Source: a virus. From it: 15,204 bases of DNA. The stretch is taken from the UHGV virus genome UHGV-1767466; one strand, written 5' to 3'. A program made the translations under genes and the position numbers. Below the pieces are notes generated by a model that was not told the DNA's origin, did not search any database, and saw only the letters and a list, made by a program, of their open reading frames with translations. This document shows positions 14 to 14,171 of the stretch, piece by piece (positions within the stretch are counted from its first letter, which is position 1; every line of letters begins with the position of its first letter).

Positions 14-100
14 ATGCGCACTTCTGCAAATCAGCGTTATAACCAGCTTCTTTCCCTTTTACTTGTGGCACTTCCGGTAATCGGAGGTGGGAATTATGAA

Positions 101-436
101 ATGCACAACGATCCTCATTCCTGGCCTGATTTACTTGAACTGTTACAGAGCTGGTGGCGTGGAGACACACCGCTGGGTGCAGTGATTATGTCGATCGTTA
201 TGGCTGGCTTGCGCATTGCCTATTTTGGCGGGGGAGGGGGCTGGAAGCGAAAAACGCTCGAGATTTTGCTCTGTGGTGCTCTGACGCTGACTTTTGCATC
301 CGCTCTTGAGTATGTCGGATGGCCCAAATCGCTTTCTGTTGCCATTGGTGGCGGCGTTGGGCTGATCGGTGTCGATGCTATTCGTGGGGCTGCAATGCGA
401 GTAATCGGTAACAAATTTGGTAGCTCGAAGGAGTAA
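101..436 (+). CDS. Holin, lambda S-like family (111 aa)
   Basis: ORF frame 14..436. ATG at 101 sits 9-13 nt after GGAGGTGGG (83-91). The protein has hydrophobic helices and a charged C-terminus (RVIGNKFGSSKE) and resembles lambda S in size and layout. It lies immediately upstream of an R-like endolysin. The ATG at 14 has no RBS and overlaps the terminator T-tract. Confidence 0.75.
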   Translation: MHNDPHSWPDLLELLQSWWRGDTPLGAVIMSIVMAGLRIAYFGGGGGWKRKTLEILLCGALTLTFASALEYVGWPKSLSVAIGGGVGLIGVDAIRGAAMRVIGNKFGSSKE

Positions 437-439
437 TTT

Positions 440-916
440 ATGCAGGTACTAAATCCTCAGCGTAAAGCTTTCCTTGATATGGTGGCCTGGTCAGAAGGAA
501 CGGATAACGGGCGACAACCGACACGTAACCACGGTTATGACGTTATTGTCGGTGGCGAACTATTCGCTGATTACTCCGATCATCCTCGCAAACTTGTCAC
601 GCTAAACCCAAAACTCAAATCAACAGCAGCCGGACGTTACCAGCTTCTTTCCCGTTGGTGGGATGCTTACCGTAAACAGCTTGGTTTGAATGACTTCTCC
701 CCCAAAAGCCAGGACGCTGTGGCATTGCAGCAGATTAAAGAGCGTGGCGCTTTACCGATGATTGATCGCGGTGATATCCGTCAGGCTATCGATCGTTGCA
801 GCAATATCTGGGCGTCGTTACCTGGTGCAGGTTACGGTCAGTATGAACATAAAATCGGTGACCTGATTGCCCGATTTAAAAAAGCTGGTGGGGTAGTAAA
901 TGAAGCTGAGATATAG
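440..916 (+). CDS. R: Endolysin, lambda R-type lytic transglycosylase (158 aa)
   Basis: Translation MQVLNPQRKAFLDMVAWSEGTDNGRQPTRNHGYDVIVGG...SNIWASLPGAGYGQ closely matches my recollection of lambda R across its whole length, including the catalytic Glu context WSEGT. Same length (158 aa). SD GAAGGAG at 427-433. Confidence 0.93.
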   Translation: MQVLNPQRKAFLDMVAWSEGTDNGRQPTRNHGYDVIVGGELFADYSDHPRKLVTLNPKLKSTAAGRYQLLSRWWDAYRKQLGLNDFSPKSQDAVALQQIKERGALPMIDRGDIRQAIDRCSNIWASLPGAGYGQYEHKIGDLIARFKKAGGVVNEAEI

Positions 917-1292
917 GCTGGTTATTGTTGCCTTCGTTGTTACCGTCATTGGTTCCTTCATCTGGTCTGCTGGGCATTACTACAGCAAATATCAGCACGA
1001 AAAGGAGCGTGCTGATGAGGCTGTACGAAATGCTGAATCAGCAACTGCCATTACCCGTAACGTTCTGCAATCACTGCAAATCATCAATACAGTTATAGAG
1101 GCTAACCAGCATGCAAAAGAGCAGATCGCACTGGACGCATCGGGAGCCTCGGCTGATATCCGGGTTGCTGTTGCGAATGATGATTGCACTAATCGCCCTG
1201 TCCCTGCTGGCGCAGTTAAGCGGCTGCAACAATTCGCGAACGGTCTACGTCAAAGTGCCGGTAGTCCCGTTACCGGCCAGCCTGACGGCTGA
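900..1292 (+). CDS. Rz-like i-spanin (inner-membrane spanin subunit, 130 aa)
   Basis: Starts 17 nt before the endolysin stop. N-terminal TM segment (LVIVAFVVTVIGSFIW) followed by a charged, helix-prone periplasmic domain. Canonical position after the endolysin, and a lipoprotein ORF overlaps it in the +1 frame. Confidence 0.7.
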   Translation: MKLRYRLVIVAFVVTVIGSFIWSAGHYYSKYQHEKERADEAVRNAESATAITRNVLQSLQIINTVIEANQHAKEQIALDASGASADIRVAVANDDCTNRPVPAGAVKRLQQFANGLRQSAGSPVTGQPDG

Positions 1293-1434
1293 CACCCCGC
1301 AACCGGAAATCCCTGACAACCTGACGTGGGGCCAGAGCCTAGATTTAAACGTCAGTCTCCTATCAGCGCTTGGGCAGTGCAACCGGGATAAGGCAGATAT
1401 TAGGCAAACTGTAAAGAAACAAGCGGGCCAATAA
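1177..1434 (+). CDS. Rz1-like o-spanin (outer-membrane lipoprotein, about 85 aa precursor)
   Basis: In the +1 frame relative to Rz, from ATGATG at 1177. Signal peptide MMIALIALSLLAQLSGC with lipobox LSGC; mature part is proline-rich (VPVVPLPASLTADTPQPEIP). It extends 142 nt past the Rz stop, giving an overlapped rather than embedded architecture. Confidence 0.7.
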   Translation: MMIALIALSLLAQLSGCNNSRTVYVKVPVVPLPASLTADTPQPEIPDNLTWGQSLDLNVSLLSALGQCNRDKADIRQTVKKQAGQ

Positions 1435-1440
1435 GCCCGC
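1409..1440 (-). terminator. Rho-independent terminator for the minus-strand moron gene
   Basis: GCGGGC (1423-1428) / GCCCGC (1435-1440) stem with a 6-nt loop. On the minus strand it is followed by TTGTTTCTTTACAG (reverse complement of 1409-1422). It lies 22 nt downstream of the minus-strand gene stop at 1462 and overlaps the Rz1 stop codon. Confidence 0.5.
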
Positions 1441-1461
1441 ACTTATGGAGGATTCAAAATG

Positions 1462-2142
1462 TTACAGAACCCACCACCTGATCGAATCTGTGGGTATGGT
1501 TGCAGCCTCGACATTCTGGATCATACCCAACTCGGTGGCCCTTCCCGGATCAATGATGGTTGCAGAAGTGATCAAATTAGCCCAGTCAATTTGCTCATCT
1601 GGGGCTACAGCGAGAGCCTCGATATTCATCACCTGCACAAATCTTTGCAAGTCGTCATCCAGACATGCCGCCCATTCCCTAAGCCTGAGGTGATCTGCTT
1701 GTGGGGCGGCAAATCCCCAATGTAAAGGATGTAATAAAAATCGCGAGAGAGGATTAGCAAACCGCTCAGATCCAGCCATGAAAATAACATTTGCTATAGA
1801 TTCCACGTTACTAAGGTTATGTGTCTTCACCTTTACAGGAAGAGACTTAAGAAAGTTGTATGCGGTAAAACCTGCAACGGTATCTCCACCTTTACTAGAG
1901 ATGTAAATCCTGATCTCAGAGGCTGGTTGGTTAGGGCTTGATATCGCTTTGAGGCAAACATCCATAAGGCTGGATACAGAAGCAACTGTCACATCTGTCA
2001 TGAAGTGTACGGTATGGATCATTTCAGTTTCCCAGAGATATGCCGCAATTGGCATTTTCATAATGCACATAAAGTGAAAAGTTTTCTGCGTAAACCCGGA
2101 TGAAATAATTTCATGAAGTAAGGCATTACAGAAGCCCTTCAT
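1462..2142 (-). CDS. ClpP-fold (S14/S49-like) serine peptidase homolog, moron gene (up to 226 aa; start uncertain, internal ATGs at codons 25/28/30)
   Basis: Translation aligns by eye to E. coli ClpP over the catalytic core. IRIYISSKGGDTVAGFTAY matches IYLYINSPGGVITAGMSIY. A Ser lies 31 residues after the GG (VESIAN vs QAASMG). ERFANPLSRFLLHP matches KRFCLPNSRVMIHQP, with His at the equivalent spot. The gene is the only minus-strand gene in the region, is AT-rich relative to its neighbours, and has its own terminator. Confidence 0.6.
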   Translation of the reverse strand: MKGFCNALLHEIISSGFTQKTFHFMCIMKMPIAAYLWETEMIHTVHFMTDVTVASVSSLMDVCLKAISSPNQPASEIRIYISSKGGDTVAGFTAYNFLKSLPVKVKTHNLSNVESIANVIFMAGSERFANPLSRFLLHPLHWGFAAPQADHLRLREWAACLDDDLQRFVQVMNIEALAVAPDEQIDWANLITSATIIDPGRATELGMIQNVEAATIPTDSIRWWVL

Positions 2143-2476
2143 TGAGGGGCTTCGATAATGAAACCGGAATTTATTCTGGGTAACCAGTTACGGCAGTACA
2201 GCGAAACAACCCAAGCCAGTAAGTGGGGAAATAACACTGGCAGCCACTGAAAGATGAACCTCCTGCCTTATGGCAAAAAAGATTCTTTGTGGTGGCGGAC
2301 TGATGGAAAGACATCGGTTATTGCAGAGGCCATTCAATGAGTGGTCTCGACAATGGCTTATACCCTGCACGGGATAACTTAACTGATATCCCTTTTAACG
2401 GATAAACGGAGCCAATAATGGCAGAGAATGTCGGCATTATGGCAGTTAAATTTGGATAAATCGGAGATTAGTACAT

Positions 2477-2827
2477 ATGCCGCCACGAATCCCGAAAGCC
2501 TGCCGTGCTCGAGGTTGCCGTAATACCACCACAGACCCGTCAGGCTACTGCGAAAGCCACAAAAGCGAAGGCTGGAAGCAGTACAAACCTGGACAGTCCC
2601 GACACCAGCGCGGTTATGGTTCGAAGTGGGATGTTATCCGCGCGTGTGTGCTGAAGCGTGATAAAGGTTTATGTCAGTTATGTCTGCGTGCTGGTGTGGT
2701 GCGTGAGGCGAAAACCGTTGACCACATCATTCCCAAAGCGCATGGCGGCACCGATGCCGACAGTAACCTGCAGAGTCTGTGCTGGCCGTGTCATAAGGCG
2801 AAGACGGCCCGTGAACGGCTGAAGTAA
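2477..2827 (+). CDS. HNH endonuclease (phage packaging-associated, HK97 gp74-like), 116 aa
   Basis: Cys-rich N-terminus (CRARGCRNTTTDPSGYCESH). HNH core DHIIPKAHGGTDADSNLQSLCWPCHKAK with His...Asn...His and a CxxC zinc ligand pair. Sits directly upstream of the terminase genes, as is typical for cos-phage HNH proteins. ATG at 2477, GGAG at 2463-2466. Confidence 0.9.
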   Translation: MPPRIPKACRARGCRNTTTDPSGYCESHKSEGWKQYKPGQSRHQRGYGSKWDVIRACVLKRDKGLCQLCLRAGVVREAKTVDHIIPKAHGGTDADSNLQSLCWPCHKAKTARERLK

Positions 2828-2952
2828 GAACCAGTTCCCATTGCCAGAGGGGAGGGGCGGGTCAAATCCCTGTGACCTGACGTCTTCCGGACTGCCCGCC
2901 CCATCGTTTTTTTATACCCGCGAAAAATGAAATTTAACCAGGAGTGCCGCAT
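2828..2952. other. Candidate cos / packaging-initiation region between HNH and TerS
   Basis: 125-bp non-coding gap exactly where HK97-like phages carry cos. Contains an 8-bp GC inverted repeat GGGGCGGG (2854-2861) / CCCGCCCC (2895-2902) flanking a GACGTC palindrome (2879-2884), followed by a T7 run (2907-2913). The cut site cannot be located from sequence alone. Confidence 0.4.
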
Positions 2953-3447
2953 ATGGCTGGAACGGCGGGGCGTTCCGGGCGTCGCCCCAAGCCAACGGCG
3001 CGCAAGGCGCTGGCCGGAAACCCCGGCAAGCGAGCCCTGAACAAAGATGAACCTGTTTTTACGCCCATCAAAGGTGTTGAGCCACCGGAGTGGTTCGCTG
3101 AAGAAGATCTCCCTCTCGCCACGATCATGTGGCAACTGACAACCAAAGAACTCTGCGGTCAGGGCCTGCTGTGCGTGACTGACCTCGCGGTGCTTGAGCG
3201 GTGGTGCGTGGCCTACGAGTTCTGGCGACGTGCCGTGAAAAATATTGCCAGACAGGGCAACACCATCACCGGTGCAATGGGTGGCATGGTCAAAAATCCG
3301 GAGCTGACCGCCAAGAAAGAACAGGAGTCCGAGATGAGCAGCACGGGGGCAATGCTCGGACTCGACCCCAGCAGCCGCCAGCGTCTGATTGGCCTGGCGG
3401 GGCAGAAGAAAGCCACTAACCCGTTTCTGAAAATCATCGAATCATGA
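2953..3447 (+). CDS. Terminase small subunit (P27-family TerS), 164 aa
   Basis: ATG at 2953 preceded by AGGAG (2940-2944) at 8-nt spacing; the ORF track begins at an in-frame GTG at 2944. Basic N-terminus ([22 protein letters not shown]) typical of TerS. The stop overlaps the TerL start (ATGA at 3444-3447). Confidence 0.85.
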
Positions 3448-5177
3448 GCCGGAAATCTTACCCCAACGTAAATGCTGCCAATCAGTATGCCCGTGATGTC
3501 GTGCGCGGAAAGATTGTGGCCTGCCAGTTTGTGATTCAGGCCTGCCAGCGCCATCTTGATGACCTGATGGCGGAAAAAAGTAAGTCGTTTCGTTACCGCT
3601 TCGACAAGGACCTGGCTGAACGGGCCGCGAAATTTATTCAGCTGTTGCCACACACCAAGGGGGAGTGGGCATTCAAGAGGATGCCCATCACGCTGGAACC
3701 GTGGCAGCTCTTTGTGATCTGCTGTGCGTTTGGCTGGGTCAATAAAGGCTCCCGGCTGCGCCGCTTCAGGGAGGTGTATACCGAAATCCCCCGTAAGAAC
3801 GGCAAATCGGCAATCTCTGCCGGTGTTGCCCTGTATTGTTTTGCCTGTGATAACGAGTTTGGCGCGGAAGTGTATTCCGGTGCCACGACAGAGAAACAGG
3901 CGTGGGAAGTCTTTCGCCCGGCGCGACTGATGTGTAAACGCACACCCATGCTGACGGAAGCGTTCGGGATTGAGGTTAACGCCTCAAACATGAACCGTCC
4001 GGAGGATGGCGCGCGGTTTGAACCGCTGATCGGTAACCCCGGTGATGGTTCATCACCCCACTGTGCCGTGGTGGATGAATATCACGAGCACGCCACCGAT
4101 GCGCTTTATACCACGATGCTTACCGGGATGGGCGCGCGACGTCAGCCACTGATGTGGGCCATCACCACCGCCGGGTACAACATTGAGGGGCCGTGCTACG
4201 ACAAGCGGCGGGAAGTTATCGAGATGCTCAACGGTTCGGTACCCAACGATGAATTGTTCGGGATCATCTATACAGTTGACGAAGGCGATGACTGGACCGA
4301 CCCGCAGGTGCTGGAAAAAGCTAACCCGAATATTGGCGTGTCGGTTTATCGCGAATTTTTGTTAAGTCAGCAGCAGCGTGCGAAAAATAACGCCCGTCTG
4401 GCAAACGTCTTTAAAACAAAACACCTCAATATCTGGGTGTCGGCGCGTTCGGCGTATTTCAACCTGGTGAGCTGGCAGAGCTGCGAGGATAAATCACTGA
4501 CCCTTGAGCAGTTCGAGGGGCAACCGTGCATTCTGGCCTTTGACCTGGCGCGTAAGCTGGATATGAACAGCATGGCGCGACTTTATACCCGCGAGATTGA
4601 CGGTAAAACGCATTACTACAGTGTGGCCCCGCGTTTCTGGGTACCGTATGACACGGTGTACAGCGTCGAGAAAAATGAAGATCGACGGACAGCCGAACGC
4701 TTTCAGAAATGGGTGGAAATGGGCGTTCTGACCGTTACCGATGGTGCAGAGGTGGATTATCGCTACATCCTCGAAGAGGCCAAAGCGGCGAACAAAATCA
4801 GCCCGGTCAGCGAGTCACCCATCGACCCCTTCGGGGCGACCGGGTTGTCACATGACCTTGCTGATGAAGACCTGAATCCCGTCACTATCATTCAGAACTA
4901 CACCAACATGTCCGACCCGATGAAAGAGCTGGAAGCGGCAATTGAATCGGGGCGCTTTCATCATGATGGCAATCCCATCATGACCTGGTGTATCGGCAAT
5001 GTGGTCGGCAAAACCATTCCGGGTAACGATGATGTGGTGAAACCCGTCAAAGAGCAGGCGGAAAACAAAATTGACGGTGCAGTTGCGCTGATTATGGCGG
5101 TTGGCAGAGCCATGCTGTACGAGAAAGAAGACACGCTGTCTGACCACATTGAGTCCTATGGGATCCGCTCGCTTTAA
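3444..5177 (+). CDS. Terminase large subunit (TerL), 577 aa
   Basis: Length and position fit. Walker A-like P-loop ([14 protein letters not shown]), acidic Walker B-like stretch (AVVDEYHEH), and a C-terminal nuclease-type region with conserved Asp residues ([13 protein letters not shown]). Translationally coupled to TerS. Confidence 0.93.
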
Positions 5178-5188
5178 CTGAGGTAATT

Positions 5189-5371
5189 ATGATCATGCTG
5201 ATTCTCGCGCCTCTGGTGGGCGTGCTGGGGGCGCTTTTGCTGGCGTATGGTGCCTGGATGATTTATCCCCCGGCGGGGTTTGTTGTTGCCGGGGCGTTGT
5301 GCCTGTTCTGGTCGTGGCTGGTGGCGCGATATCTCGACCGTACACAGCTGTCTGTTGGTGGAGGTAAATAG
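5189..5371 (+). CDS. Small membrane protein (60 aa, two predicted TM helices), function unknown
   Basis: Exactly fills the gap between TerL and portal. GAGG at 5180-5183, 5 nt before ATG 5189. Its stop TAG (5369-5371) overlaps the portal GTG start by 1 nt. Sequence is almost entirely hydrophobic ([26 protein letters not shown]...[14 protein letters not shown]). Confidence 0.5.
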
Positions 5372-6612
5372 TGTTCTTTTCGGGATTATTTCAACGAAAA
5401 AGTGACGCACCGGTGACCACGCCAGCAGAGCTGGCGGAGGCTATCGGGCTGTCCTACGACACCTATACCGGAAAGCAGATCAGCAGTCAGCGGGCCATGC
5501 GACTGACGGCGGTTTTTTCCTGCGTCAGAGTGCTGGCAGAGTCGGTCGGGATGTTGCCCTGCAATCTGTATCACCTGAACGGCAGCCTGAAGCAGAGAGC
5601 CACCGGCGAACGTCTGCATAAACTGATCTCCACGCATCCCAATGGCTATATGACGCCGCAGGAGTTCTGGGAGCTGGTGGTCACCTGTCTGTGCCTGCGG
5701 GGAAACTTTTACGCCTACAAAGTGAAAGCATTTGGCGAAGTGGCTGAACTGCTGCCCGTCGATCCCGGCTGTGTGGTACCGAAGCTTAACAGTAGCTGGG
5801 AGCCGATCTATCAGGTCACATTCCCGGATGGCTCCACGGATGTACTGAGCCAGGAGGATATCTGGCATGTGCGCACGCTGACGCTGGACGGACTGGTGGG
5901 GCTGAATCCCATCGCCTATGCCCGCGAGGCAATATCGCTGGCAGCTGCGACCGAAGAGCACGGGGCCAGACTGTTCAGCAATGGCGCGGTGACGTCGGGG
6001 GTGTTGCGTACAGAGCAGACGCTGTCAGATCAGGCTTATGAGCGCCTGAAGAAAGATTTTGAGGAGCGTCACACCGGGCTTGGCAATGCTCACCGCCCGA
6101 TGATCCTTGAGATGGGGCTGGACTGGAAGTCGATGGCGCTGAACGCCGAGGACAGCCAGTTCCTGGAAACCCGCAAGTTTCAGCTTGAAGAAATCTGTCG
6201 TCTGTTCCGGGTGCCGTTGCACATGGTGCAGAACACCGATCGCGCCACCTTCAACAATATCGAAGAGCTGGGGCTGGGATTTATCAACTATTCACTGGTG
6301 CCGTATCTGACCCGCATCGAACAGCGGATCAACACCGGACTGGTACGAAAAAGTAAGCAGGGCGTTTATTACGCCAAATTTAACGCCGGGGCGTTACTGC
6401 GCGGGGATATGAAGTCCCGTTTTGAAGCCTACGCCACCGGGATCAACTGGGGAATTTACTCTCCCAATGACTGCCGCGACCTGGAAGATATGAATCCGCG
6501 TCCCGGTGGTGATGTCTATCTCACACCGATGAACATGACCACGAAACCCTCCGATGGCAGTAAAGCCGGTAAGCAGAAGGATAACGCCAATGCAGACGAA
6601 ACAACGTCTTGA
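5371..6612 (+). CDS. Portal protein (HK97-family), 413 aa
   Basis: GTG start at 5371 preceded by GGTGGAGGT (5357-5365). Size and position between terminase and prohead protease fit. Acidic Asp/Glu-rich C-terminal tail typical of portals. Confidence 0.9.
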   Translation: MFFSGLFQRKSDAPVTTPAELAEAIGLSYDTYTGKQISSQRAMRLTAVFSCVRVLAESVGMLPCNLYHLNGSLKQRATGERLHKLISTHPNGYMTPQEFWELVVTCLCLRGNFYAYKVKAFGEVAELLPVDPGCVVPKLNSSWEPIYQVTFPDGSTDVLSQEDIWHVRTLTLDGLVGLNPIAYAREAISLAAATEEHGARLFSNGAVTSGVLRTEQTLSDQAYERLKKDFEERHTGLGNAHRPMILEMGLDWKSMALNAEDSQFLETRKFQLEEICRLFRVPLHMVQNTDRATFNNIEELGLGFINYSLVPYLTRIEQRINTGLVRKSKQGVYYAKFNAGALLRGDMKSRFEAYATGINWGIYSPNDCRDLEDMNPRPGGDVYLTPMNMTTKPSDGSKAGKQKDNANADETTS

Positions 6613-7240
6613 TGTACCGCTGAGTCTGAAATCTGTCAGTGACTCCGGTGAGTTTGAAGGGTATGGCTCCGTCTTTGGTGTAAAGGACAGCCACGATGAT
6701 GTGGTGATGTCCGGGGCATTTGCTGCTTCCCTGCGGGCGTGGAGTGACAGAAAAGCGTTACCTGCGCTGCTCTGGCAGCACCGCATGGATGAACCCATCG
6801 GTGTTTACACCGAAATGAAGGAAGACGATGTCGGGCTTTACGTCAGGGGACGGTTGCTTATTGATGATGATCCCCTCGCAAAACGCGCACATGCACACAT
6901 GAAGGCCGGTTCGTTAACCGGCCTTTCTATTGGGTACGTCCTGAAAGACTGGGAATACGACCGGAGCAAAGAAGCCTTTCTGCTGAAAGAAATCGACCTC
7001 TGGGAAGTCAGCCTGGTGACGTTCCCGTCTAACGACGAGGCGCGGATCAGCGACGTCAAGAACGCACTGGCCCGCGGGGAAATCCCCGAACAGAAAAAAA
7101 TCGAAAGAGTCCTGCGTGATGTCGGACTCTCCCGTACCCAGGCCAAAGCATTCATGGCCGGGGGCTATGGCGCACTGTCCCTGCGCGACGCTGAGGATGT
7201 GGGCTCTGCACTGAATGCACTGAAAAATCTGAACTTCTAA
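6590..7240 (+). CDS. Prohead maturation protease (HK97 gp4-like, S78 family), 216 aa; alternative start 6554 (228 aa)
   Basis: Conserved N-terminal motif EFEGYGSVFGVKDSHDDVV, characteristic of HK97-type prohead proteases, and a C-terminal region typical of this family. ATG 6590 has a weak AAGGA upstream and overlaps the portal end by 23 nt; ATG 6554 has no RBS. Confidence 0.85.
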   Translation: MQTKQRLDVPLSLKSVSDSGEFEGYGSVFGVKDSHDDVVMSGAFAASLRAWSDRKALPALLWQHRMDEPIGVYTEMKEDDVGLYVRGRLLIDDDPLAKRAHAHMKAGSLTGLSIGYVLKDWEYDRSKEAFLLKEIDLWEVSLVTFPSNDEARISDVKNALARGEIPEQKKIERVLRDVGLSRTQAKAFMAGGYGALSLRDAEDVGSALNALKNLNF

Positions 7241-7254
7241 TCAGGAGAAATACG

Positions 7255-8460
7255 ATGGCGGTTGATATTAAAGATGTCGAACAGGTCGCGCAGGAGCTGC
7301 AGCAGAAGTTTGACGACTTCAAAGCAAAGAACGACAAGCGCGTGGATGCGATTGAGCAGGAAAAAGGCAAGCTTGCCGGGCAGGTGGAAACCCTGAACGG
7401 GAAACTCAGCGAGCTGGAAAATCTCAAAAGTGATCTTGAAAAAGAGCTGCTTGAGCTGAAACGTCCGGCTGGTGGAGCGCAAAATAAACTGGCCACCGAG
7501 CATAAAGAGGCGTTTGTGGGCTTCCTGCGTAAAGGCCGTGAAGACGGTCTGCGCGATCTGGAGCGTAAGGCATTGCAGGTGGGTACCGATGAAGACGGTG
7601 GCTACGCCGTGCCGGAAGAATTGGATCGCAACATTCTTAACCTGCTGAAAGATGAAGTGGTGATGCGTCAGGAAGCCACGGTGATCACCGTTGGCGGTTC
7701 CGACTACAAAAAACTGGTGAATCTGGGCGGTACGGCTTCCGGATGGGTGGGAGAAACGGATACGCGATCCCAGACTGCCACCTCCAGACTGGAGCTGATT
7801 GAACCTCTCATGGGGGAAATTTACGGCAACCCGCAGGCTACCCAGAAAATGCTGGACGATGCCTTCTTCAACGTGGAGGCCTGGATCAACAGCGAGCTGG
7901 CAACCGAATTTGCCGAACAGGAAGAAATTGCCTTTACCTCAGGCGATGGCACCAAGAAGCCGAAAGGGTTCCTAGCGTATGAATCCACTGATGAAACCGA
8001 CAAGGTCCGGGCGTTCGGCAAACTTCAGCATATTGTATCCGGCGAAGCGACCGCGGTGACCGCAGACGCCATTATCAAACTGATTTACACGCTGCGTAAG
8101 GCACACCGCACTGGCGCGAAGTTCATGATGAACAACAACAGCCTGTTTGCCATCCGTCTGCTGAAAGACACCGAGGGTAACTATCTGTGGCGTCCGGGGC
8201 TGGAACTGGGGCAGCCGTCCTCTCTGGCGGGTTACGGTATCGCTGAAAACGAACAGATGCCGGATATCGCCGCTGATGCGAAAGCCATTGCATTTGGTAA
8301 CTTCAAACGGGGTTACACCATCGTTGACCGTATCGGCACCCGCATTCTGCGTGACCCGTACACCAATAAACCGTTTGTCGGTTTTTATACCACCAAGCGC
8401 ACCGGCGGGATGCTGGTCGATTCGCAGGCCATCAAACTGCTGAAGATTGCAGCGGCGTAA
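7255..8460 (+). CDS. Major capsid protein, HK97 fold with N-terminal delta (scaffolding) domain, 401 aa
   Basis: AGGAG at 7243-7247. The first ~100 aa are a coiled-coil-like delta domain (KDVEQVAQELQQKFDDFKAKNDKRVDAIEQEKGKLAGQVETLNGKLSELENLKSDLEKELLELKR). Followed by an HK97-type capsid body, directly downstream of the prohead protease. Confidence 0.92.
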   Translation: MAVDIKDVEQVAQELQQKFDDFKAKNDKRVDAIEQEKGKLAGQVETLNGKLSELENLKSDLEKELLELKRPAGGAQNKLATEHKEAFVGFLRKGREDGLRDLERKALQVGTDEDGGYAVPEELDRNILNLLKDEVVMRQEATVITVGGSDYKKLVNLGGTASGWVGETDTRSQTATSRLELIEPLMGEIYGNPQATQKMLDDAFFNVEAWINSELATEFAEQEEIAFTSGDGTKKPKGFLAYESTDETDKVRAFGKLQHIVSGEATAVTADAIIKLIYTLRKAHRTGAKFMMNNNSLFAIRLLKDTEGNYLWRPGLELGQPSSLAGYGIAENEQMPDIAADAKAIAFGNFKRGYTIVDRIGTRILRDPYTNKPFVGFYTTKRTGGMLVDSQAIKLLKIAAA

Positions 8461-12765: not shown

Positions 12766-12914
12766 CGGCTGAATACCTCACTGATCGCTTCTTTGACTGC
12801 GCCTGCTACTGGCGCATTAATCCTTTCGAATTGCTGAATATGCCGATCAGTGAAATTCCCTTGCTGGTCAGTCAGGCAAACAGGATAGAGCAGGAGAAAC
12901 GCACACATGGCTGA
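12496..12914 (+). CDS. Tail assembly chaperone, long product via programmed -1 ribosomal frameshift (join 12496..12753, 12753..12914; about 139 aa)
   Basis: Slippery heptamer T_TTT_TTC at 12747-12753 in the zero frame (codons GGT TTT TTC). After a -1 slip the reading continues FFPPGLTAEYL... to TGA at 12912-12914, overlapping the tape measure ATG at 12907. Confidence 0.55.
12747..12753 (+). promoter_or_regulatory. Putative -1 frameshift slippery site (T TTT TTC)
   Basis: Fits X_XXY_YYZ in the chaperone zero frame, 10 nt upstream of the zero-frame stop. The -1 frame is open from here to 12914. Confidence 0.5.
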
Positions 12915-13308
12915 ATTTGAGCTTAAGGCGTTGATCACCGGTGTCGACAGGCTTTCTCCCGCGCTGTCGAAAATGCAAAAGAAAATCCGGGGATTTAAAC
13001 GCCAGGCGGAAGAAGCGTCACAGGGTGGGCTGGCGCTTGGTGGAGGACTGGCAGCGGGGCTGACGCTTTCCCTGAAATCTTATGCCGATCAGGAAAACGC
13101 CGCTACCGGGCTGAAAGTCGCCATGATGGATGCGAACGGCGAGGTTGGAAAGAGCTTTCAGGACATCAATAAACTGGCTATTGGCCTGGGTAACCAGCTA
13201 CCCGGTACAACGGCTGATTTCCAGAACATGATGCAGATGCTGGTGCGTCAGGGGATCCCGGCAGAAAACATTCTGGGTGGTGTGGGTAAAGCGACAGCTT
13301 ATCTGTAA
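12907..13308 (+). pseudogene. Tape measure protein, N-terminal fragment only (133 codons); gene interrupted by IS66-family insertion
   Basis: Starts where the frameshifted chaperone ends. The N-terminus (MAEFELKALITGVDRLSPALSKMQKKIRGFKRQAEEAS...) is typical of tape measure proteins, which are normally 600-1000 aa. Here the frame ends at TAA 13306-13308, supplied by the first bases of the IS end (GTAAGCG from 13305). Confidence 0.8.
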
Positions 13309-13389
13309 GCGTAAAGCCAATGCCGTCTGTAACACCTGCTCCTTGCAGACTAAATTAGAGCTCCTTCTAAATTAGACGGAGTTCTATTG

Positions 13390-13824
13390 ATGGATAAACC
13401 TACAGACTGGCGCTCCGGAACCCGCCGGATATTTTCTAATGAATTTAAACTTCATATGGTTGAACTGGCTTCGAAACCAAATGCCAATGTTGCACAACTG
13501 GCCCGGGAACATGGCGTTGATAACAACCTGATTTTTAAATGGCTACGCCTCTGGCAAAGAGAAGGACGTATTTCTCGTAGAATGCCTCCAACTATTGTAG
13601 GCCCTACAGTATCACAATCTTTTCCGGCCTCTCCGACTCTGGTTCCAGTGGAACTTATCGACACCCCGCGCTGTGCTACAGATGCTCCTGCTCCGGGGGC
13701 ATTATCAGTTGCTTGTGCAGCTTCCTGCCATGTGGAATTCCATTACGGTAAAATGATGCTGGAAAATCCTTCACCAGAGCTGCTCACGGTGTTGATCCGT
13801 GAGCTGACCGGGAGGGGACGATGA
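13390..13824 (+). CDS. tnpA: IS66-family accessory protein TnpA (orfA, HTH), 144 aa
   Basis: ATG 13390 preceded by GGAG (13378-13381) at 8-nt spacing; the ORF track begins one codon earlier at TTG 13387. N-terminal helix-turn-helix-like region (SNEFKLHMVELASKPNANVAQLAREHGVDNNLIFKWLR). Stop overlaps the tnpB start (ATGA at 13821-13824). Confidence 0.8.
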   Translation: MDKPTDWRSGTRRIFSNEFKLHMVELASKPNANVAQLAREHGVDNNLIFKWLRLWQREGRISRRMPPTIVGPTVSQSFPASPTLVPVELIDTPRCATDAPAPGALSVACAASCHVEFHYGKMMLENPSPELLTVLIRELTGRGR

Positions 13825-14171
13825 TTTCACTCCCATCAGGTACCCGTATCTGGCTCGTTGCCGGCGTTACTGATATGCGTAAATCCTTCAATGGTCTGGG
13901 GGAGCAGATACAGCATGTGCTGGATGATAACCCCTTCTCCGGTCACCTGTTTATCTTCCGTGGCCGACGGGGAGACACGATTAAAATCCTGTGGGCTGAT
14001 GCTGATGGTCTGTGCCTGTTCACCAAACGCCTTGAGGAAGGTCAGTTTATCTGGCCTGCGGTGCGTGACGGTAAGATATCCATTACCCGCTCGCAACTGG
14101 CAATGCTCCTCGATAAGCTGGACTGGCGTCAGCCAAAAACATCCCGCCTTAACGCACTGACAATGTTGTAA
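13821..14171 (+). CDS. tnpB: IS66-family TnpB (orf2), 116 aa
   Basis: Translation MISLPSGTRIWLVAGVTDMRKSFNGLGEQIQHVLDDNPFSGHLFIFRGRRGDTIKILWADADGLCLFTKRLEEGQFIWP matches the conserved IS66 Orf2/TnpB family as I recall it. Size and position fit. Confidence 0.88.
   Translation: MISLPSGTRIWLVAGVTDMRKSFNGLGEQIQHVLDDNPFSGHLFIFRGRRGDTIKILWADADGLCLFTKRLEEGQFIWPAVRDGKISITRSQLAMLLDKLDWRQPKTSRLNALTML

Follow-up and report, generated by a model that had tools for sequence, protein, structure and literature searches.

The closest described relative of the gene considered here is that for PpClpP1, a chromosomal ClpP paralog of Pseudomonas plecoglossicida (PDB 9UXT; PLoS Pathog 2026, PMC12900304). PpClpP1 forms a homotetradecamer with an axial pore of 42.7 Å; its peptidase activity is low and depends on the catalytic Ser and His, the third triad residue being dispensable, and it neither binds ClpX nor, on its own, degrades casein or GFP-ssrA. 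Together with the canonical ClpP it assembles into a stable heterotetradecamer with higher peptidase activity and slightly increased ClpX-dependent degradation (PMC12900304). Phages are not mentioned in that paper. Another accessory subunit, ClpP2 of P. aeruginosa, modulates ClpXP assembly (PNAS 2026, PMC13056064). The subject of this report is a gene for a protein of the PpClpP1 type in prophage DNA, the UHGV virus genome UHGV-1767466 (15,204 nucleotides; "the window" below means this whole stretch), where it lies on the opposite strand between the lysis cassette, which ends in Rz1, and the HNH/terminase packaging-head module. By sequence, its product is a member of the N-terminally truncated ClpP paralogs, and the best reading is that it would supply an accessory ring working with, or beside, the single ClpP of the host.

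Accessory ClpP subunits that form mixed cores also include Listeria ClpP1 and mycobacterial ClpP1P2. The textbook examples of organisms with a single ClpP are E. coli and Klebsiella. The protein family itself was described in 2026. A phage-borne form that moves among hot spots in single-ClpP hosts is, as far as could be found, new: the literature gave no account of an enterobacterial prophage-borne ClpP paralog, a ClpP moron or a ClpP-type defense gene.

Protein Family, Fold, and Catalytic Residues

The mechanical list of open reading frames (ORFs) contains a reverse-strand ORF at 1462..2142 encoding 226 aa, residues 71-150 of which align with Pfam CLP_protease (PF00574) at E = 7e-12 and 46 bits, against a cut-off of 20.2. 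An earlier reading of the window, made from its letters alone (the sequence-only reading), had proposed a ClpP catalytic core with its Ser and His, and this is borne out both by the Pfam match and by the residues described below. PF00574 is the sole Pfam family matched at E ≤ 1; peptidase S49 (SppA or lambda C type), the other family suggested for comparison, gave no match and was rejected. None of the NCBIfam models for ClpP or head maturation comes near its cut-off, NF045542 included (ClpP-related head maturation; E = 2e-12, 47.5 bits against a cut-off of 120), and there is a match to PHROG 94, "head maturation protease," at E = 1e-22.

An AlphaFold2 model built from 29 homologs has a predicted local distance difference test score (pLDDT) of 91.8. 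Its best PDB match by Foldseek is 9UXT (P. plecoglossicida ClpP1), with a template-modeling (TM) score of 0.90, a root-mean-square deviation of 1.6 Å and 33% identity; canonical ClpPs fit the model at TM ~0.75 with 18-19% identity, and predicted viral structures are more distant, the best matches having 11-24% identity. The family profile likewise matches 9UXT at E = 1.4e-54 over residues 1-182, as against ~1e-11 for other solved ClpPs.

In the window protein the Ser of VESIA (Ser75) and the His of LLHPL (His98) align with Ser97 and His122 of E. coli ClpP (mature numbering), and both are invariant among the 29 homologs. The position of the canonical Asp171 is Ala here, and A, S, T, P or V in 38/38 family members examined. 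The first residue aligns with approximately residue 39-42 of the E. coli ClpP precursor (approximately 25-28 of the mature protein); the propeptide, the N-terminal axial (gating) loops and helix A are absent from the window protein in this alignment. The pocket that receives the IGF motif and acyldepsipeptides (ADEP) comprises 12 residues in E. coli ClpP-ADEP structures, and only 3 of these are kept, with changes such as I90 to His, L114 to Asn, Y60 to Arg and F82 to Ser; at 7 of the 12 positions most family members have a polar residue. No additional sensor or regulatory domain was found in the protein.

The family is small, since only 114 representatives (50% clustering) were found at E ≤ 1e-30 among 1.84 billion proteins. 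A neighbor-joining tree groups the window protein with the 9UXT family, far from E. coli ClpP, and resolves four clades: one phage-borne, in Enterobacterales; one chromosomal, in Massilia/Telluria (~70 species representatives); one chromosomal, in Pseudomonas/Azotobacter; and one metagenomic. The Pseudomonas/Azotobacter clade contains PpClpP1 and is flanked by genes for a KGG stress protein and DUF6555. These KGG-repeat and DUF6555 flanks are seen in both putida-group and fluorescens-group genomes (loci L199-L203, around 5001-5552), and they hint at a stress or stationary-phase role for the chromosomal Pseudomonas homologs.

Limits of the Gene, Composition, and Terminator

The start codon is most likely the ATG at 2022 rather than position 2142, where the sequence-only reading had let the gene begin; this gives a gene at 1462-2022 and a product of 186 aa. 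The revision rests on the length and start of the homologs, the limit of DNA homology and the ribosome-binding site of diverged members: among 90 clusters of homologous proteins, the full-length ones are mostly 178-187 aa long and start with MxHTxHF (the homologs' start is also found as MIHTVHF); the DNA alignment of 72-73%-identical copies ends exactly at 2022-2024; and a clear Shine-Dalgarno sequence stands ahead of the 2022-equivalent ATG in diverged members. Conservation of the 40 extra codons of the mechanical ORF (2023-2142) is limited to near-identical DNA, and the 226-aa version was rejected on these grounds. Under the revised start, all 454 bp upstream of the ATG (2023-2476) are untranslated.

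The gene had also been called AT-rich. Its GC content is indeed lower than that of its neighbors, and its composition still sets it apart, but the bias is mild: 46.2% in the gene, against 55.3% downstream and 55% in the rest of the window, with 39.1% in 2023-2160. The gene is under purifying selection, the ratio of nonsynonymous to synonymous substitution rates (dN/dS) against diverged copies being 0.08-0.17 in the comparisons that allow an estimate of dS (in the rest, dS is saturated). These values and the invariant catalytic residues rule out a pseudogene or a chance ORF.

Beyond the stop codon of the gene, the minus strand carries a seven-pair stem (1440..1423) and then TTGTTTCTTT, a rho-independent terminator that folds at -15.1 kcal/mol (z = -3.6). 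The Rz1 stop codon, TAA, lies inside its loop, an overlap that the sequence-only reading had already remarked on. On the plus strand the same hairpin is without a T-tract, so late transcription would not be expected to stop at 1413-1440.

Upstream Region

The DNA ahead of the gene is a composite. Positions 1101-2160 of the window match Klebsiella and E. coli W21 prophages at 97-99% identity, and positions 2115-2427 are 92% identical to HK97 38655-38966, the spacer ahead of the HK97 HNH gene. Because the homology blocks divide there, only 2023-2160 of the upstream stretch belongs to the cargo unit. The AT-rich gap that had been assigned to the gene at 2143-2476 is mostly HK97-type spacer, and only 2023-2160 travels with the gene.

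The spacer at 2115-2427 (HK97/HK022/mEp-type) is present, 92-96% conserved, in ~2,900 of 5,426 complete E. coli genomes and in many phages; being so common, it is not specific to the ClpP-like gene, which most of these E. coli genomes are without. A small plus-strand gene in the spacer was considered and rejected, there being no plus-strand ORF longer than 35 aa, and a structured RNA was rejected as well, no Rfam family reaching its gathering threshold in a scan of the whole window. A hairpin resembling a terminator does occur in the spacer, at 2280..2259 of the minus strand.

Judged by its sequence and inheritance, the block at 2023-2160 is likely the 5' untranslated region and promoter/operator region of the gene. 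A relaxed promoter scan gave no convincing site, only weak candidates, along with two palindromes in this block; a conserved CATTAT stands 37 nt before the ATG, the match to the -35 element being only 3/6. The shorter palindrome, ATGAAATaATTTCAT (2100-2114), is conserved in a relative (L124), and a similar CATGA...TCATG palindrome is found upstream of 79%-identical genes at two loci (L106 and L132) with upstream DNA that is unrelated in other respects. The palindrome of the window is a candidate operator. The longer one, of 37 bp (2124-2160), folds at -18 to -21 kcal/mol (z -4 to -6) on either strand and shows compensatory changes in L124, which is 89% identical; it may be a mosaic boundary, a recombination joint or a protein-binding site.

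Cargo Status and Genomic Positions

The ClpP-like segment is a moron: a single-gene unit with its own terminator, antisense to the late operon. As the sequence-only reading had proposed, it sits in the slot that holds bor in lambda, and comparison of related prophages shows that the contents of this slot vary. The E. coli AST240 sister prophage covers 91% of the window at 97% identity and shares its head genes, yet its slot is empty, with 26 bp between Rz1 and HNH (by blastn, window 141-1382 and 2476-3500 are collinear there); ST540 has iss, a bor homolog, in reverse orientation; and M11957 (L002) has a 78%-identical ClpP-like gene accompanied by a 182-aa gene. Near-identical copies in Klebsiella and E. 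coli W21 are always convergent with Rz1, while the other side of the gene is occupied by four different modules: a Terminase_2 TerS, a DUF2280 TerS, PhageMetallopep, and a lambda-type terminase.

Across prophages, no fewer than six unrelated positions hold a family member by itself. In 42 of 80 IMG/VR loci the gene comes directly after that for an 82-aa Mnt-like ribbon-helix-helix (RHH) repressor, divergent from arc/ant, with the stop and start codons of the two genes overlapping as TAATG; this arrangement occurs in P22-like prophages and also inserted between the lambdoid tail genes L and K. Other copies occupy the interval from Q/nSTAND to the holin gene, a P2-like tail cluster, an antisense position beside N (PL operon) in Proteus prophages, and a prophage end next to a tail-fiber assembly gene. 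Of the 5,426 complete E. coli genomes 174 have the gene, as do at least 131 contigs of IMG/VR. Because AST240 shares the head genes yet has an empty slot, and because positions vary, the gene is cargo and not part of the head module.

The 182-aa gene of M11957 (L002 6640-7188, minus strand) is co-oriented with the ClpP-like gene, 82 bp upstream of it, and is also found in 7 IMG/VR contigs. Its product has no Pfam and no PADLOC match; the gene may encode a partner or represent another moron. An obligatory partner gene was looked for and rejected: the 182-aa neighbor is present in 7 of 80 viral loci, and the Mnt-like gene is confined to a clade of ~57% identity.

The slot between Q and the holin gene holds reverse-oriented genes of other kinds in related prophages: a TIR-domain gene in AST240 (L197 5405-6220), a KAP NTPase in M11957 (L002 3011-4342) with a PADLOC match to PDC-S20 at E = 1e-175, and, at another locus (L022 5722-7113), an nSTAND ATPase adjoining a ClpP-like gene. 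These are candidate defense genes.

Possible Functions

The model ranked first, and held with modest confidence, is that of an accessory ClpP ring, expressed in the lysogen, that forms a hybrid core with the ClpP of the host. By analogy with PpClpP1, the window protein would assemble into heptameric rings, presumably with a similarly open pore. In a lysogen the phage ring would stack on one formed by the host's only ClpP, and the hybrid 7+7 core would be served by host ClpX or ClpA through the host ring, so that Clp-dependent degradation would change in capacity or in the spectrum of its products. Expression from the prophage in lysogens is probable, given that the gene is antisense to the late operon, as bor is, that it is translationally coupled to the lysogeny gene mnt in the largest clade, and that it has its own terminator. 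The features that support the model are membership in the PpClpP1 family, the lost gate and pocket, cargo status, purifying selection and the lack of any extra sensor domain, with P. aeruginosa ClpP2 as a precedent for an accessory ring (PMC13056064). Of the roles that the sequence-only reading had put forward for such cargo, manipulation of host proteolysis is the one that family membership favors. The benefit may lie in fitness under stress, in lysogen stability, or in turnover of incoming-phage proteins. RpoS, SOS factors, antitoxins and lambdoid replication proteins are all under the control of Clp-dependent proteolysis, which, because prophages carry a mobile second ClpP subunit, could differ between lysogens and non-lysogens.

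Several points weigh against this model. The hybrid has been seen only for a 33%-identical Pseudomonas protein and its co-evolved partner, not with the ClpP of E. coli or Klebsiella, and its gain in ClpX-dependent degradation is only slight (PMC12900304). The relatives in Pseudomonas and Massilia are encoded in the chromosome, among stress genes or in unremarkable surroundings, and their biology may not be transferable to the phage clade. Expression in lysogens is a prediction from context, and a scan of 1200-2700 found no sigma-70 consensus promoter. Selection on this particular copy is uncertain, because the prophage that carries it looks defective. The hot spots of the phage clade, finally, are typical of anti-phage genes, and a defensive role would fit them at least as well.

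A bolder and more doubtful proposal is that temperate phages of Enterobacterales are spreading a plug-in ClpP ring that re-programs ClpXP and ClpAP and so alters the stability of regulators or of proteins of superinfecting phages. If true, this would be lysogenic conversion or immunity achieved by swapping half of the proteolytic core of the host, with the largest clade wired directly to the Mnt/Ant anti-repressor switch. More generally, "accessory ClpP" may amount to a new kind of prophage cargo or defense.

An alternative is that the protein needs no partner. As an autonomous anti-phage or superinfection-exclusion effector, an open-pore 14-mer acting without host ClpP or an unfoldase, it would degrade unfolded or disordered ejection or early proteins of an incoming phage, or trigger abortive infection. 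Its positions suit such a role, since the family occupies classical exclusion and defense slots expressed in lysogens (that of bor/iss, the Q-holin interval beside an nSTAND ATPase, the site next to N, and that downstream of mnt) and TIR and PDC-S20 genes take adjacent slots in sister prophages; the wide pore of the homolog would also admit unfolded chains without an ATPase (PMC12900304). The one member with known biochemistry is less encouraging, PpClpP1 alone having low peptidase activity and degrading neither casein nor GFP-ssrA (PMC12900304); moreover, there is no sensor or regulatory domain, the chromosomal Pseudomonas and Massilia relatives are conserved outside defense islands, and no report of a ClpP-type defense gene was found in the literature. 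The sequence-only reading had not recognized a described defense system here, and a search of PADLOC-DB v2 agrees, with 0 families at E ≤ 1 for the ClpP-like protein; a known defense system was rejected on the same basis for the 182-aa neighbor in M11957 and for the Mnt-like protein. Autonomous action is judged unlikely, if less so than the two explanations that follow.

The loss of the docking pocket and N-terminal loops would also suit a dominant-negative decoy, in which the phage ring, with no means of docking ClpX or ClpA, caps host ClpP rings or takes their place and so cuts ClpXP and ClpAP capacity, stabilizing particular substrates such as phage or host regulators. PpClpP1 does not bind ClpX (PMC12900304), and a 7+7 hybrid would have a single unfoldase-competent face. 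However, the invariance of Ser and His and the purifying selection argue for catalysis and not mere capping, and the Pseudomonas hybrid is more, not less, active (PMC12900304); a decoy is judged quite improbable. Least credible of all, and for practical purposes refuted, is an auxiliary or relic ClpP-related head-maturation protease. The PHROG 94 (E = 1e-22) and NF045542 (E = 2e-12) matches point that way, as does one phage record that annotates its homolog so, but the NF045542 score of 47.5 bits is far from the cut-off of 120, and the viral structural matches reach 11-24% identity as against TM 0.90 for the cellular paralog. Nor is the gene co-oriented beside the portal and capsid genes: it is on the reverse strand, 3.3 kb upstream of portal and outside the portal-capsid block, where the phage's own S78 protease occupies the expected place. 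AST240, with the same head genes, lacks it, and its position varies between phages. That the peptidase is cargo rather than a part of head maturation, as the sequence-only reading had argued from the HK97-type prohead protease, thus stands, and an accessory ring on host ClpP remains the preferred reading.

Flanking Genes and the Host Prophage

Coordinates of the features discussed are collected in Table 1. The structural genes of the window are 96-98% identical to those of the Shigella serotype-converting phages SfI, SfII and SfIV, which supports the label "SfV-like" given to the prophage by the sequence-only reading. In the holin ORF the match to Phage_holin_3_1 begins only at residue 31; there may be a true holin start, or a dual-start holin/antiholin pair, further downstream. 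The region 12907-14171, and on to the end of the window, has a tape-measure gene with an IS66-family element inside it, and homology to SfI/SfII ends at 13304. The prophage is probably defective, since this element interrupts the tape-measure gene.

Table 1. Features of the ClpP-like locus and its surroundings in the window.
Feature	Position	Strand	Remarks
Holin	14-436		ORF of 140 aa; Pfam Phage_holin_3_1
Endolysin ORF	440-916		Window protein without Pfam match; sister-prophage homolog annotated glycoside hydrolase family 24
Rz	900-1292
Rz1/LysC	1111-1434		Stop codon TAA at 1432-1434
Whole variable segment	1383..2475		Against the AST240 empty slot (blastn)
Rho-independent terminator of cargo gene	1413..1440	-	Stem 1423-1440, U-tract 1413-1422
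Coding sequence, truncated ClpP paralog	1462..2022	-	186 aa, MIHTVHF...RWWVL (start most likely); Ser75, His98 catalytic; canonical Asp position is Ala
Co-inherited upstream block	2023..2160	-	138 bp, 39% GC; takes in the N-terminal extension (2023-2142) of the mechanical ORF, which is not conserved
Perfect palindrome (candidate operator)	2100..2114		78-92 nt upstream of start codon
37-bp palindrome	2124..2160		Overlap/junction of Klebsiella-type block and HK97-type spacer
HK97-type conserved spacer before HNH	2161..2476		Homology range 2115-2427
HNH	2477-2827
TerS	2944-3447
TerL	3444-5177
Portal	5371-6612
S78 (HK97-type) prohead protease	6554-7240
Capsid	7255-8460
PhageMin_Tail ORF	12907-13308		133 aa only
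HTH_Tnp_1 orfA of IS66-family element	13387-13824
TnpB_IS66 gene of IS66-family element	13821-14171

Comparison with Known Systems

Lambda bor lies after Rz/Rz1, and both bor and E. coli iss resemble the window gene in this slot, in reverse orientation and in consisting of a single gene. Their products, however, are outer-membrane lipoproteins for serum resistance, unrelated to proteases. The resemblance to P22 immI is also one of position: in the largest phage clade the ClpP-like gene is directly downstream of a Mnt-like gene, as are orf59a and the exclusion gene sieA in P22, but the proteins are unrelated, and the copy in the window has no linkage to mnt.

The ClpP-related prohead proteases (NF045542, PHROG 94) share the ClpP/crotonase fold, the Ser-His site and the fact of being phage-encoded. 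Their genes, which heads require, occupy the portal-capsid interval on the coding strand, whereas the window gene is antisense cargo; its product is structurally nearer to the cellular paralog than to these proteases and falls under the NF045542 cut-off.

The accessory subunits of mixed cores, P. aeruginosa ClpP2 among them, offer a functional parallel to the proposed hybrid: a second ring that is itself unable to dock ClpX acts as half of a 7+7 core and adjusts ClpXP output (PMC13056064). ClpP2 belongs to another clade (7M1L; family profile E ~3e-10), and these subunits are chromosomal, not mobile cargo.

PpClpP1 is nearest, with the same sequence family, fold and N-terminal truncation, the same pairing of Ser and His with a non-acidic third residue, and almost the same length (183 vs 186 aa). 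The two proteins differ in sequence (33% identity), in the third triad position, which is Pro there and Ala in the window protein, and in a conserved C-terminal WWV motif that the window protein's clade has, unlike PpClpP1. They differ, too, in setting: PpClpP1 is chromosomal, beside KGG and DUF6555 genes, and pairs with a co-evolved paralog, whereas the window clade is carried by temperate phages of Enterobacterales, and its partner would be the foreign ClpP of whatever host the phage has entered.

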